A DNA stretch of 64,000 nucleotides. It comes from Thermodesulfobacteriota bacterium (lineage in GTDB: Bacteria > Desulfobacterota > BSN033 > UBA1163). Below, piece by piece: positions 42,851 through 48,003 of the stretch. The first letter of the stretch is position 1; every line of letters starts with the position of its first letter. The notes under the pieces are model-generated. The model had not been told where the DNA came from and did not search any database. It saw only the letters and a list, made by a program, of their open reading frames with translations. A program made the position numbers and the translations under genes. The stretch spans positions 2,297 through 66,296 of the forward strand of contig JAPVTA010000102.1 in NCBI GenBank assembly GCA_047519465.1, in the 5' to 3' direction.

Positions 42851-44038
42851 ATGAGCGCCAAGGAAATCAGTCGAAGGAAATTTATGAAAGATGTGGCTAA
42901 ATATTGTGGTGCCGGTGTCGCTGCAGTGGGATTGATCGGAGACGCCAGGCGACTCCTTGCGGTCGATGACCTGGACGTCCCGGCCCAGGAAGGCGTCTGG
43001 AGGATGCGGGATACCCAACTCAAACAATACGGCGAGTTCATTCAAAATGCACCCCTTCCCAAAGACTATTTTGAAAAAAAGCCAGAAACTTTAGTGGACG
43101 GAGGAAAGCCAGTCGACTGGTCACATCTTCATCCCAACTGGTACGCTGAAGGGAATAAATCCCCGGTCGGGCTCATCATGGCAACCCCATTGGATAAGGA
43201 CTTAAAGGGAGACATCAAGAAGGTCATGAAGCTTGTCGGAGGCTTTGGCAAAGCCCTTAAGAAAACGGATAAGATCCTCATCAAGCCCAACATGAACACC
43301 GCAGATCCCTGGCCGGGGGGAGGCACTGACCCGGATTTTTTGGAAGCTTTAATCCTCGTTCTTAAAGATGAGGGGTATCAGAACGTTACTGTAGCCGATA
43401 CGTGCGGGCCCTGGGGGCCCACAGAGCGCGTAATCAAGAAGGTAGGTTACAATTCTGTATGTAGCCGCACCAACACCCCTCTTAAGGACTGGGATAAAGG
43501 AAAATGGATGAATATCCGAAATGCCAAAGCCGAATTCCTGGGAAAGATGGGCGGCGGCGACGGCACTGTGGCCTATCCAGAAGACCTGAGAAATTATGAC
43601 AAAATCATCTACACGCCTGTCATGAAGACTCATTTTCTCGGAGGAATCACACAGAGTTTGAAGCTTTCCGTTGGGATTTTGCATCGGGCTGATCGTGGGG
43701 CCTTTCTCCATGGATTCAACCACATCTTCGTTGCTGAACAGGCGGCAGAGATCAACCTGCCCTTCCGGCCAGATCTCATTATCATGGATGGCAGAAGGTC
43801 CCTCGTCAGTGGCGGGCCTTCCCATGGCGAAGAGGTAAAGCCTGGAGTGATCCTTGCCGGTGGGGACCAGGTAGCCAACGATGTCATGGGTATTAAGATC
43901 TTGCAGGAATGGTACCCGAACATGGCCGCGAACAAGATAGGCATGTATGCGTGGTATCAAAAGCAGATCCTGCAGGCCGTAAAGCTCGGCATAGGATATG
44001 CTAAGAAAGATGACGACATCAAGCTTGTCTTAGGTTAA
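42851..44038 (+). CDS. Tat-signal DUF362-domain protein
   Basis: Twin-arginine motif SRRKFMKDVAKYCGAGVAAV; DUF362-like core (KILIKPNMN...); strong RBS aaaggagg. Confidence 0.6.
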   Translation: MSAKEISRRKFMKDVAKYCGAGVAAVGLIGDARRLLAVDDLDVPAQEGVWRMRDTQLKQYGEFIQNAPLPKDYFEKKPETLVDGGKPVDWSHLHPNWYAEGNKSPVGLIMATPLDKDLKGDIKKVMKLVGGFGKALKKTDKILIKPNMNTADPWPGGGTDPDFLEALILVLKDEGYQNVTVADTCGPWGPTERVIKKVGYNSVCSRTNTPLKDWDKGKWMNIRNAKAEFLGKMGGGDGTVAYPEDLRNYDKIIYTPVMKTHFLGGITQSLKLSVGILHRADRGAFLHGFNHIFVAEQAAEINLPFRPDLIIMDGRRSLVSGGPSHGEEVKPGVILAGGDQVANDVMGIKILQEWYPNMAANKIGMYAWYQKQILQAVKLGIGYAKKDDDIKLVLG

Positions 44039-44053
44039 GGTCCCATTTTGAAT

Positions 44054-44090
44054 CCCCCCCTTCCTCGCAAGGAAGGGGGGGATTATTTTC
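44054..44090 (+). terminator. Rho-independent terminator
   Basis: cccccccttcc-tcgc-aaggaaggggggg followed by attatttt. Confidence 0.75.
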
Positions 44091-44103
44091 TAAAACAATT
44101 GCG

Positions 44104-45177: not shown

Positions 45178-45178
45178 G

Positions 45179-47206
45179 ATGAATCCAAAAGGCGGATGGG
45201 TTGGAAAAATTCTTCGAGTAGATCTGAGCTCTCGAAAAATCTCTGAAATTTCCACCTTTGATTACGTGCCAAAATTCCTTGGAGGTCGAGGGCTTGGAGC
45301 AAAAATTTGCTGGGACGAAGTGCCGCCAGAGGTCGGAGCCTTCGATGCGGAGAATCGGCTCATCTTCGCCACTGGACCGCTTCAGGGAACTTTGGCTCCC
45401 ACCTCTGGGAGGTTCATGGTTCTTGGAAAATCTCCCCAGACCGCTCCGAACGAATCCTTTTGCCGGTCGGGTGTGGGGGGGCATTTCGCACCCGAGTTAA
45501 AGTGGGCAGGATATGATGCCCTCATCATCCAGGGAAAAGCCTCAAAACCAGTCTATCTTTGGATCACGGAAGGAAAAGCCGAGATCCTCGATGCTACTCG
45601 CTTGTGGGGTCTTGATACCTACCAGACCCAACAGATGATCTGGAAGCTCCACGGAAGAAAGACTCGAGTGATGGTCATTGGAAGAGCTGGAGAAAATCGA
45701 AGTCGAATCGCCTGTATTTTGACAGATTCAGGGGATGCTTCAGGCCAGGGAGGGTTTGGCGGCCTGATGGGGTCAAAGAACCTGAAAGCCATCGCAGTTC
45801 GAGGCACTGGGACTGTAACCGTGGCCAAGCCGAAAGAACTGATGGAGACTTCCTACCATATCCAAAAGCTCTTCTCCCGCAAACCTTTAAATAGCAACCC
45901 CTATCAGCCGGAGGAGAAGGGGTTTAAATACAATATCTGGGGAGGAGGTTATGGCAGGGGAAGCCTCTCCCTTCTCGCCGGTGAGCTTCTCGACCTTTGT
46001 AATGATCCTTCCTCAGGCTATTCTCAGACGCCGGATGGCTGTTTCGCCTGCCCCGTATCCTGCCGCTCACGAGTGAAAGGCCCGGATATTACCGCTGGCG
46101 TAGCCTTTTGCGCCCAATCCTACATGTATTTGGAATCCATGGTCGATAAGCCCGAAAAGGGCTATAGCAAAATCACTTGGCAGGCTGCCAAACTTGCTGA
46201 CCTCTATGGGATCAACGCCTACGAACTGATGGCCATCATCCCTTGGCTTTCCGATTGTTACCGCGAGAAGCTTATCACCGAAGAAGGTACGGGTCTTCCT
46301 CTCAAGGAGATCGGTTCCTGGAACTTCATTTCCAAGCTCCTCTCTATGATGGCCGAACGGCAGGGGTTTGGCGATCTTCTCGCAGAAGGCGGCCAGCGAG
46401 CAGCGGCGAAACTCGGCGAGAAGGCGGAAAGGCTTTCGTGGATGTATTACCCTCGAGGCGGAAAATTCGGAGGCTACCGCGAACACTGGGTCTATTTGGG
46501 AGGTTTCCCAACGGGATACGCAGTTCCTGCGCTTGCCTTGATGTGGGTTTTGGATAATCGAGATGCTATGGTCTCCCACAGCTACATCTCCATGCTCTGG
46601 GGTGCGGCTTTCACCATTGGACAGAATGCCCTAACTGCAGTGCCGGAAAAAATCTTCCCTATTCTCAAACCGGTGATAAAGGCTACCTATGGTTCAGAAG
46701 AAGCCGCAGAATTTTTCCGGTCTGACGGAAAAAGCCTGAATTGGAAATGGACCGCACCGACCGTGAAACGATATCATGAGTATTCTCTTTTGAAAGATAG
46801 CTACATCGTCTGTGACATTCTCTTCCCTTACCTTTTCAATGCGAATTCCTCTGATCATGTGGGAGACGTGACTTTGGAATCGCGCCTTTATTCCGCTGTC
46901 ACCGGAATGGAGATGAGCTTAGAGGAGTCCTATCAAAAAGGAGAGATGCTCTCCACTCTTGAGAGAGCTTTAGCCGTTAGAGACGGTCGGACCCGCAAGG
47001 ACGACACCCTCCATGAACTCTATTTCGAAAAAGAGGACGCCGGAGGCAGGAAATATCTCCGGGAAGACCTGGAGCGTTCGAAAAGTGACTATTATAAACT
47101 GATGGGATGGGATGTTAGATCCGGCATCCCGACCGAGTCTACTCTAAAACGGGTAGGCCTTCAAGACGTGGCCGAAGACTTACAAAAAAGAAGAATCCAG
47201 GGATAA
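45179..47206 (+). CDS. AOR-family oxidoreductase, long form (E. coli YdhV-like)
   Basis: AOR_N ([11 protein letters not shown]...[33 protein letters not shown]) closely resembles YdhV; 675 aa versus about 600 for classical W-AORs; sits between the Tat-FeS and cytochrome b genes. Confidence 0.75.
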   Translation: [675 protein letters not shown]

Positions 47207-47211
47207 AGATT

Positions 47212-48003
47212 ATGACCGTTGAACCCTTTTCTTTACCCGCCTTTACAATGGCTGAATACAATCTCTATCGCCTCGACGATCGGGTCTTCTGGACTTTCGT
47301 CCTGACCGGTTTGATCTTTTGCATGATTCACGCCGCACGAAGAGCTTTTCGTCAGCCTCGCGCCATCGCCCTTCCCGAGAAAGAAGGGAGTATTCCGATC
47401 TCAAACGGAGAGGAAATCGAACGGCATACTCTTTTCCAGAGAGTTTTCCATTGGTCTAATGCAGTGGCCGTCATCCTCTTAACCATCTCTGGATGGATGA
47501 TCTATCAACCTCGTAAAATTCTTTCCTTCACTGAAACAACTTCCACAGGATTTACCTGGCACCGCTGGGGAGTAGCACTCCTTCTGGTCGGTCTAGTCGC
47601 CCATTTCATATATGAAAGTTTTATCGCTCACGGTTCAAATCCGGTAGCTGTCAATCGGGCAGAGGGAAAAAAATTGTTGGCGATGCTCAGGAATTTCTTT
47701 GGCCTTTCCAAATCCTATCCCCTGATAAACAAATACCACCCGGGCCAGATCTTCTTTCACTGGATAGTAGCAGGAAATCTCTTCCTATTGACCCTGACCG
47801 GCTTTGTCATATGGAAACCTTTTCGAGACCTTCTGCCTCTTTCTCTCTTCGGCCTGAGTTGGGACTTCGTTTTTTACTGCCGTCTTCTCCACGGTTTTTT
47901 TTCAGCCACCTTGATCCCGAGCCTGATGGGCCATATCTATTTCGCGCTTCTCATCAAAAAGAACTGGAAGGAAACCCGATCTATTTTCACCGGTCGTGTT
48001 TGA
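47212..48003 (+). CDS. Membrane b-type cytochrome (YdhU/PhsC/FdnI-like anchor)
   Basis: Four TM helices with conserved His (FQRVFHWSNA, HGSN, HG); PF01292-like. Confidence 0.65.
   Translation: MTVEPFSLPAFTMAEYNLYRLDDRVFWTFVLTGLIFCMIHAARRAFRQPRAIALPEKEGSIPISNGEEIERHTLFQRVFHWSNAVAVILLTISGWMIYQPRKILSFTETTSTGFTWHRWGVALLLVGLVAHFIYESFIAHGSNPVAVNRAEGKKLLAMLRNFFGLSKSYPLINKYHPGQIFFHWIVAGNLFLLTLTGFVIWKPFRDLLPLSLFGLSWDFVFYCRLLHGFFSATLIPSLMGHIYFALLIKKNWKETRSIFTGRV

Follow-up and report, generated by a model that had tools for sequence, protein, structure and literature searches.

What an enzyme of the aldehyde:ferredoxin oxidoreductase (AOR) family is doing next to export signals, a membrane cytochrome b and a protein of the DUF362 family is the question raised by a five-gene cluster located at 42851-48003 in a 64,000-nucleotide stretch of DNA of a Thermodesulfobacteriota bacterium (assembly GCA_047519465.1, contig JAPVTA010000102.1, positions 2,297 to 66,296 of the forward strand), which is called the window in the following. 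The five open reading frames (ORFs) are all on the forward strand and encode, in order of transcription, a DUF362 protein bearing a signal for twin-arginine translocation (Tat), a small exported protein, an iron-sulphur (FeS) protein with a Tat signal, an AOR-family catalytic subunit and a cytochrome b, with intergenic spacings of 65, 0, 1 and 5 nt, the start codon of the FeS gene directly abutting the stop codon of the small gene. Gene content, order and coordinates agree with a preliminary description of the locus, which had been made from the sequence alone, and which had likened the cluster to the ydhYVWXUT operon of Escherichia coli and left the DUF362 protein as an unexplained component. 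Taken as a whole, the reading that we favour, and regard as reasonably probable, is that of a quinone-coupled, periplasm-facing molybdenum or tungsten (Mo/W) oxidoreductase of the YdhV-like type with a nickel-pincer DUF362 protein as its partner.

The catalytic subunit matched both Pfam domains of the AOR family, AFOR_N with 246 bits and AFOR_C with 157 bits (gathering cut-offs 29.8 and 27), and the same pattern of a strong N-terminal and a weak C-terminal domain was obtained for YdhV (228/164 bits), unlike for a classical AOR of the window (205/335 bits). The NCBIfam model of YdhV, PRK09849, scored the subunit at 335 bits, which is below the equivalog cut-off of 868, and the classical AOR encoded at 50664-52544 at 170 bits. 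The subunit and YdhV were reciprocal best hits in BLAST, with 28.7% identity over the full length (246/232 bits), whereas the comparisons with PfAOR, FOR, AaAorB and the window AOR gave 165-190 bits. Over 100 homologues were found at 67-94% identity. Since the alignment with PfAOR begins at residue 5-6, the subunit has no N-terminal extension or signal of its own.

Four [4Fe-4S] cluster ligands, C288, C291, C295 and C545, align with C288, C291, C295 and C494 of PfAOR and are invariant in the family. The predicted metal ligand of the subunit is C311, which shares its alignment column with Cys336 of YdhV and Cys322 of BamB. The second shell required for aldehyde oxidation in classical AOR and FOR enzymes consists of Thr243, Glu313, Tyr427 and His448 in PfAOR numbering (PMC12096430). 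The first three of these positions are Gly, Ala and Val in the window protein, and only His448 is retained, as H467; the residue set of the classical aldehyde-oxidising enzymes is thus not present. The combination of a Cys ligand with lost second-shell residues marks the YdhV and BamB clades (PMC12096430).

These two clades were set apart in a neighbour-joining (NJ) tree of 158 sequences with 200 bootstrap replicates, in which 150 cluster representatives from an exhaustive search were complemented with YdhV, both classical AORs of the window, PfAOR, FOR, AaAorB and BamB (PDB sequences as given in the alignments). The catalytic subunit and YdhV fell into a group of 106 sequences (bootstrap 97-100%), which left out BamB, PfAOR, FOR, AaAorB and both window AORs, and within which the subunit formed a separate clade (100%) with its near relatives and a single representative of 62% identity. 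The metal-ligand Cys was present in 106 of the 106 members and throughout a neighbouring group of 19 sequences, which BamB joined once it was added (20 in total) and which is sister to the YdhV-containing group. The profile of these 19 sequences scored BamB at 536 and PfAOR at 531 bits, and hence the group is not simply BamB-like. An identity as a BamB-like benzoyl-CoA reductase was rejected for the window protein, as BamB lies outside the supported group and a CoA ester is ruled out as a substrate in the periplasm. The phylogeny that had been proposed as a check placed the subunit with YdhV (97%) and away from BamB, FOR and the classical AORs, and together with the reciprocal BLAST, the model scores and the Cys ligand it bore out the earlier suggestion that the subunit is nearer to YdhV than to the two classical AORs of the window.

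Membrane-associated, heteromultimeric enzymes of the family with a Tat signal on the small subunit have been defined as Class V WORs and are reported only in clade 41 of the tree of Schut et al. (PMC13328260). The 106-sequence group is wider than this class, as it also holds members whose FeS partners, encoded at 1-575 of locus L054 and 3-536 of L048, begin without a twin-arginine signal (e.g. MGKPPSMPRKGVIVVD); Cys-ligated YdhV-like enzymes thus exist in cytoplasmic versions, too. For the group members P0122, P0123, P0125, P0142, P0146 and P0157, the gene neighbourhoods were available as short contigs only.

The translated FeS protein contains 16 Cys in four motifs (CxxCxxCxxxC / CxxCx4-5CxxxCP), which fits four [4Fe-4S] clusters, and matches several Fer4 families of Pfam. 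Its top NCBIfam model was that of YdhY (PRK09898, 83.5 bits, cut-off 213 not reached), and BLAST returned YdhY with 30% identity (1e-22) and YdhX with 27.5% (4e-14). The twin-arginine motif reads DRRTALKG, and the pattern (D/N)RRx(V/I/F)LKG, together with the following hydrophobic region (h-region), was kept in all homologues recovered. TIGR01409 gave this protein no score; the signal has no AxA site, and may be cleaved at another position or be retained as an anchor.

The product of the last gene matched Ni_hydr_CYTB (PF01292) with 77 bits at residues 71-261, a layout that corresponds to that of YdhU (69-257 of 261 aa), and five transmembrane (TM) helices were predicted, including, as in YdhU, an additional helix at the N-terminus. 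All 24 homologues examined share H80, H117, H227 and H241, which correspond in the alignment to the haem ligands H18, H57, H155 and H169 of FdnI as well as to histidines of YdhU.

The small protein, in turn, returned no match from Pfam or NCBIfam, and among the 120 listed of its 345 homologues, there was no Pfam domain or informative name. A Sec-type signal was found in all homologues recovered, and the protein was present in 37 related loci. Its AlphaFold2 (AF2) model was poor (pLDDT 58), and the homologue alignment contained no invariant Cys, His or Met in the mature protein, which is probably a structural subunit devoid of cofactors. Much of what the preliminary description had read from the locus is upheld by these results, namely a Tat-signal FeS protein with four clusters, a small secreted protein, a catalytic subunit lacking a signal and a membrane cytochrome b starting at 47212. 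Moreover, the position of the subunit in the tree and the conserved twin-arginine motif of the FeS protein are the opposite of the two outcomes that had been named as telling against it, i.e. clustering with the classical cytoplasmic AORs and loss of that motif.

Database names of the homologues ("aldehyde:ferredoxin oxidoreductase") and the Pfam AFOR domains would agree with an ordinary cytoplasmic AOR accompanied by a polyferredoxin, the RR motifs occurring by chance. We consider this scarcely credible, because RR motifs with h-regions are kept in every homologue, a di-haem cytochrome b is encoded in a translationally adjacent gene, and Glu313, Tyr427 and Thr243 are absent while the Cys ligand is present and the tree separates the enzyme from the classical AORs with 97% support.

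Under the reading favoured here, the catalytic subunit would fold and gain its cofactor in the cytoplasm and then cross the membrane via Tat while bound to the FeS subunit. Such hitch-hiking is established for the small and large subunits of hydrogenases and for DmsAB, and together with the architecture of formate dehydrogenase-N and Phs it is the basis on which co-export is proposed. Electrons would travel from the metal site over one and then four [4Fe-4S] clusters (five in total) and two haems b to menaquinone, or in reverse, and the substrate would not be a simple aldehyde. With the reverse path, the complex would be a terminal reductase similar to PhsABC, which oxidises menaquinol at cytochrome b and sends the electrons outwards to reduce an organic or inorganic acceptor, instead of a quinone-reducing dehydrogenase similar to formate dehydrogenase-N. 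Cytochromes of this family work both ways, as exemplified by FdnI and PhsC; that of the window, with its five helices, has the YdhU/PhsC layout. BamB, the nearest characterised Cys-ligated relative, is a reductase (PMC12096430), and Class V enzymes have been discussed as respiratory (PMC13328260). The direction of the electrons cannot, however, be read from sequence, and a hydride-abstracting nickel-pincer partner would suit an oxidative pathway at least equally; the terminal reductase is therefore held as a real possibility, somewhat short of a probable one.

The partner in question, the DUF362 protein, was correctly described as carrying a Tat signal: its SRRKF motif was recognised by TIGR01409 (18.1 bits, cut-off 16.7), and [ST]RRKF with the h-region was conserved in 33 homologues, most of which have a cleavage site between AHA and V. 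The signal peptide probably covers residues 1-36, approximately, with cleavage after LLA. Residues K17, C19 and G20 (KYCGAG) of the h-region are invariant across 51 homologues, which is odd for a cleaved region; the stretch may be bound by a chaperone for proofreading, or the protein may keep its N-terminus.

From 51 sequences, an AF2 model of the DUF362 protein was obtained with a pLDDT of 77.6 and a pTM of 0.80. When this model was compared with the PDB by Foldseek, the best 16 matches were all chains of the LarA family of nickel-pincer enzymes, including lactate racemases, malate racemases and LarA-like enzymes, and the first 14 of these had E-values <0.001 and probabilities of 0.98-1.0, with global TM-scores of only 0.3-0.4. 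DUF362 and DUF2088, the family of LarA, are members of one Pfam clan, in which DUF362 has been used only as an outgroup (PMC11770544). By its model, the protein thus looks like a LarA fold. According to the LarA sequence, which was checked against 5huq, His174 (catalytic), Lys184 (tether of the cofactor) and His200 (ligand of the nickel) are spaced by 10 and 16 residues, and the same spacings are present in H261-x9-K271-x15-H287 of the DUF362 protein, invariant in its family. The local context is alike, with SHFFAGFSGGRK in LarA and THFLGGITQSLK in the window protein, and H261 and K271 stay invariant even in DUF362 paralogues of only 23-31% identity.

The setting of this protein recurs. From a scan limited to one genome per species, 44 loci were returned, nearly all of them from uncultured Thermodesulfobacteriota labelled as Syntrophales, Syntrophaceae, Syntrophobacteraceae or Desulfomonilaceae, and one from a metagenome-assembled genome (MAG) of Rokubacteria. 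All four core genes (DUF362, small protein, FeS protein and AOR) were recovered in constant order in 33 of the 42 related loci, or in 35 when L041 and L022 with one missing hit each are included, and the remaining loci were truncated contigs or were short of the DUF362 or the small-protein hit. Protein identities to the window cassette ranged from 47 to 96%, and the recurrence of the four genes in the same order over this range exceeds what is expected by chance. The cytochrome b gene comes next in about half of the loci (ca. 24). Loci of the Syntrophobacteraceae type lack it; in its place, they encode a second DUF362 paralogue (486 aa, with a Tat signal) and/or a sigma-54 activator that contains GAF and PAS domains. 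This paralogue (L013, 8115-9575; L014, 7172-8632; L043, 8114-9574) shows a TRREML motif similar to a Tat signal and is extended at the C-terminus by a part in which several Cys pairs occur (CPGC, CGDC, PGC), and its gene is located downstream of the AOR gene in the loci devoid of cytochrome b, followed by the sigma-54 GAF-PAS regulator, larE, larC and larB. Two copies of the cassette, L023 and L024, were found ca. 3.3 Mb apart on one 5.3-Mb contig (CAVYEB010000002.1); they are equally similar to the window proteins, and a sigma-54 regulator comes after one copy, larB and larC after the other.

A distant case was L047 (GCA_053537335.1, contig JAIYTS010000031.1, 1567-10300), with a catalytic representative of 47% identity (40% by BLAST, full length) and a Tat-signal DUF362 protein 27.5% identical to that of the window. 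It has two tandem pairs, each of a Tat-signal FeS protein and a Cys-type AOR, a cytochrome b of which the extra helix is encoded by a separate 53-aa ORF, and additionally a 174-aa ORF resembling half a cytochrome b; the small protein was not found in this locus. An aIF-1A-like gene (2985-3227) on the same 126-kb contig suggests an archaeal source.

Genes for synthesis of the nickel-pincer cofactor accompany the cassette in part of these loci. LarE, LarC and LarB were identified with NCBIfam equivalog models, whose cut-offs were exceeded, and at least one of larE, larC and larB was located within 6 kb in 14 of the 42 related loci, in seven different arrangements (Table 1), of which three have the genes directly downstream on the same strand. 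Canonical LarA was encoded in L007 only (486-1247, ca. 2 kb upstream of the DUF362 gene; best NCBIfam models nickel-dependent malate/lactate racemase, scoring below cut-off because the ORF is partial), and the other 13 of the 14 lar-bearing loci hold none. Mining of LarBCE neighbourhoods has previously led to an aldo-keto-reductase-fold family of nickel-pincer enzymes, LarA-like proteins having been left aside deliberately (PMC13524815). The literature search found no paper linking DUF362 with the nickel-pincer cofactor, or that cofactor with Tat export.

Considering fold, motif and gene neighbourhood together, the DUF362 protein may be a nickel-pincer-nucleotide enzyme, and with the LarA fold of the model and the cofactor genes of the relatives it is no longer the unexplained component that it first seemed to be. 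The cofactor would be tethered to K271, and the protein would perform a hydride transfer in the periplasm, either an isomerisation or the oxidation of a CH-OH group, acting on the substrate of the Mo/W enzyme or on a precursor of it and so feeding or complementing that enzyme. We tentatively propose, as a fair possibility that falls short of likely, that DUF362 is a second LarA-fold nickel-pincer family, with a subfamily that is loaded in the cytoplasm, exported by Tat and working with a quinone-wired YdhV-like enzyme.

Several results weigh against the favoured reading. Those that concern the DUF362 protein are for the most part also the grounds for supposing that it has the LarA fold and no such cofactor, i.e. 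that it binds another ligand or metal, or is a periplasmic substrate-binding or scaffolding subunit, Tat export being due only to early folding or oligomerisation and the lar genes serving a canonical LarA elsewhere. At the sequence level, there was no match to DUF2088/Lar_N or to the NCBIfam LarA models, only to the DUF362 and Npun_F2552 families; a hidden Markov model of the DUF362 family found only noise and no LarA among the PDB sequences, and six divergent DUF362 proteins gave no cross-match to a LarA model in Pfam with E-values up to 10. The pairing of H261 with H174 and of K271 with K184 by hhalign was weak (E 0.1, probability <1%), the catalytic His108 of LarA aligns with a variable Cys, H287 is variable in the 486-aa paralogues, and the model is of low confidence at residues 280-290. 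Lar genes were absent from the 64-kb window and from within 10 kb of the cassette in the closest loci of the cytochrome-b type, so that the link with cofactor genes holds for relatives and not for the window copy, and the cassette of L007 has a true LarA homologue in its vicinity. Against the cofactor-free version stand the invariance of His-x9-Lys in very divergent DUF362 proteins, with LarA-like spacing and context (SHFFxGxS...K vs THFLGGIT...K), and the seven lar arrangements beside the cassette with 13 of 14 such loci lacking LarA; it is judged unlikely, while too substantial to be neglected. The remaining points concern the complex and its expression: the absence of cytochrome b from about half of the related loci means that quinone coupling is not universal, some members of the YdhV-containing group have FeS partners devoid of a Tat signal, the branching within that group was not resolved (bootstraps <60%), and owing to a hairpin that follows its gene the DUF362 protein could be expressed, and act, independently.

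This hairpin also bears on the earlier assumption of one operon, of which the co-oriented and tightly packed genes stood the examination and the single transcript did not with certainty, as the GC-rich, terminator-like structure (Table 1) is placed between the DUF362 gene and the other four. An equivalent hairpin occurred directly after the DUF362 gene in 30 of 30 related loci tested (-17.7 to -35.5 kcal/mol per 50 nt), with stem sequences that vary between lineages and a conserved position. The constancy of a strong hairpin, in the window and in all these loci, speaks for the DUF362 gene being a separate, adjacent transcription unit that is functionally untied to the real unit of four genes. 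We find this rather improbable. Adjacency and order are constant in the 33 four-gene loci (35 with L041 and L022) over 47-96% identity, the pairing recurs in the probably archaeal locus, in spite of identities of 47% and 27%, and the DUF362 protein and the complex are exported to the same compartment. Furthermore, in the window the next start codon is a mere 20 nt from the hairpin, too close for a promoter to fit in between, and the downstream genes thus probably depend on read-through from upstream. Most likely, the hairpin raises the DUF362 message above that of the remaining genes, or protects its 3'-end.

The candidate promoter, ca. 150 nt upstream of the DUF362 start, was the best in the region with 10 of 12 consensus matches; the number of promoter-like sites did not exceed that of shuffled sequences. 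A strong Shine-Dalgarno sequence (AGGAGG) precedes the ATG of the DUF362 gene. Neither a riboswitch, those for the molybdenum and tungsten cofactors being considered, nor another RNA family was found when 41400-49300 was scanned with Rfam at E-values up to 1.

Table 1. Features of the five-gene cluster (window coordinates) and arrangements of lar genes around the cassette in related loci.
Feature	Position or locus	Strand	Basis
DUF362 protein with Tat signal, 395 aa	42851-44038	+	Pfam DUF362, 128 bits; TIGR01409
Tat signal peptide predicted for the DUF362 protein	42851-42958	+	SRRKF motif, h-region KYCGAGVAAVGLIG
Small exported protein, 155 aa	44104-44571	+	Sec-type signal; no known domain
FeS subunit with Tat signal and four [4Fe-4S], WorS/YdhY-type, 201 aa	44572-45177	+	Fer4, YdhY model
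AOR/WOR-family catalytic subunit, YdhV-like, signal-less, 675 aa	45179-47206	+	AFOR_N and AFOR_C
Membrane di-haem cytochrome b, FdnI/YdhU type, 263 aa	47212-48003	+	Ni_hydr_CYTB
Candidate sigma-70-type promoter, TTGACA-16 nt-TACAGT, TG before second hexamer	42675-42702	+	Consensus match
Terminator-like GC-rich hairpin, 15-bp stem, 4-nt loop, T-rich tail	44051-44084	+	3' of the DUF362 stop codon
Cassette, sigma-54 regulator, LarE, LarC, LarB	8 loci		
LarB and LarC immediately 3' of the AOR gene	L024		
LarE, LarB, LarC downstream of the cassette	L038		
LarE immediately 3' of cytochrome b	L028		
Opposite strand: LarC and LarB	L015		
Upstream and divergent: LarE	L032		
LarB upstream	L036		

Around the cluster, a TetR-family regulator, FadR-like by NCBIfam with a score below cut-off, is encoded divergently at 41557-42273 (- strand), 577 nt upstream of the DUF362 gene; since related loci have no such gene beside the cassette, it is unlikely to be a dedicated regulator. 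An ORF at 48076-48546 (- strand), convergent with the cytochrome b gene, starts with a TM or signal helix and gave weak matches of the plastocyanin/amicyanin kind (E 7e-4). A cupredoxin gene (11134-11595) is present near the AOR cluster of L047, with no detectable similarity to this window ORF. Between the cluster and the genes of an iron-type alcohol dehydrogenase and a classical AOR, a ThiS/MoaD-like ORF of 86 aa (48947-49207, + strand; Pfam ThiS, 31 bits) may be tied to synthesis of the pterin cofactor. The TetR, glyoxalase-like, cupredoxin-like, ThiS-like and iron-type alcohol dehydrogenase genes were excluded as parts of the cluster, as they are not conserved beside the cassette in its relatives. 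The classical AORs of the window, at 28781-30538 and 50664-52544 (- strand), retain the second-shell residues of PfAOR, and each adjoins a gene for an iron-type alcohol dehydrogenase (30586-31809 and 49262-50578, - strand), which is the usual cytoplasmic pairing for acid/aldehyde/alcohol conversion. Genes for a branched-chain-type ABC transporter (52655-57535) are beside the AOR at 50664-52544.

Should DUF362 indeed be such a second nickel-pincer family, the protein of the window would be the first periplasmic nickel-pincer enzyme, with its hydride chemistry coupled to respiratory electron transfer, and the cofactor would be a new cargo for the Tat pathway. It would further explain some of the lar gene sets lacking LarA, and provide a handle on the function of YdhV and Class V enzymes, for which substrates of the LarA type (2-hydroxy acids, sugar acids), rather than aldehydes, become candidates for screening. 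The conserved pairing of a LarA-fold protein with a YdhV-like enzyme is itself a testable link between Class V function and nickel-pincer enzymes. The host lineages (MAGs of Syntrophales, Syntrophobacterales and Desulfomonilaceae from peat, soil and sediment) matter in anaerobic carbon turnover. Many organisms make the nickel-pincer cofactor, and enzymes other than LarA that use it have only begun to be sought (PMC13524815).

Compared with known systems, the complex follows the overall plan of FdnGHI and PhsABC, in which a Tat-exported pair of catalytic and FeS subunits at the periplasmic face is connected to a di-haem cytochrome b, the four His ligands being the same. It differs in that the catalytic subunit is of the AOR family, with a bis-pyranopterin cofactor lacking a nucleotide, whereas theirs belong to the DMSO-reductase family, in that the FeS subunit, and not the catalytic one, carries the Tat signal, and, with regard to FdnH, in that the FeS subunit has no C-terminal TM helix. 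BamB, a member of the sister group and not of the 97%-supported group that includes the catalytic subunit, is a cytoplasmic enzyme with other partners; its substrate is a CoA thioester, a compound not available to a periplasmic enzyme. The likeness to it consists of the Cys metal ligand in the same alignment column and the loss of Glu313 and Tyr427 (PMC12096430).

The DUF362 protein resembles LarA (DUF2088; PDB 5huq, 2yjg, 9eia, 7s91) by predicted fold, clan, motif spacing and, in its relatives, lar neighbourhood. It belongs, however, to another Pfam family with no similarity at the level of HMMER, has no counterpart of His108, and by its Tat signal would be periplasmic, in partnership with a Mo/W, FeS and cytochrome b complex. 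With NphT (PMC13524815), it has in common to be a protein outside DUF2088, beside larB, larC and larE (in relatives of the window cassette), with conserved Lys and His. NphT is a cytoplasmic TIM barrel, of unrelated fold, that has been characterised experimentally, whereas the DUF362 protein is known here from sequence and model, and the main text of the NphT study does not mention DUF362 (PMC13524815).

The closest known systems are the Class V WORs of clade 41, to which EcYdh and CsWOR41 belong, along with enzymes of Syntrophobacter, Desulfomonile and Desulfovibrio (PMC13328260). Enzymes of the membrane-associated, YdhV-like kind make up ca. a tenth of the AOR family and occur in E. coli and gut bacteria; YdhV prefers Mo and CsWOR41 W, no activity or substrate has been found for any Class V WOR, and CsWOR41L oxidised none of 46 aldehydes (PMC13328260). 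By its sequences, and with YdhV as the only clade-41 member compared, the window cluster fits the definition of this class: the WorS counterpart carries a conserved RR motif with an h-region, where a Tat signal and/or TM domain is called for, and the downstream di-haem cytochrome b provides the further subunit and the membrane association. Common to EcYdh, CsWOR41 and the window cluster are a large subunit of the AOR family that has Cys as metal ligand and is devoid of the second shell for aldehyde oxidation and of a signal, and a Tat-signal FeS subunit with four clusters; EcYdh is additionally alike in the strong AFOR_N and weak AFOR_C domains and in the five-helix, di-haem cytochrome b of the YdhU type. 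The resemblance to ydhYVWXUT was thus confirmed in part, with counterparts for three of the six components, whereas YdhW, YdhT and the second FeS protein were missing (BLAST with the six Ydh proteins), and the catalytic subunit, 28.7% identical to YdhV, is in a separate clade with 100% support. In contrast to the Class V enzymes described, of which the text nowhere mentions DUF362 (PMC13328260), the window cluster includes a DUF362 protein and a small exported protein, and its type belongs to uncultured Thermodesulfobacteriota of soils, peat and sediments instead of gut or enteric bacteria. The enzyme class itself has already been described; what is new is a distinct and widespread subfamily with two extra conserved exported proteins.

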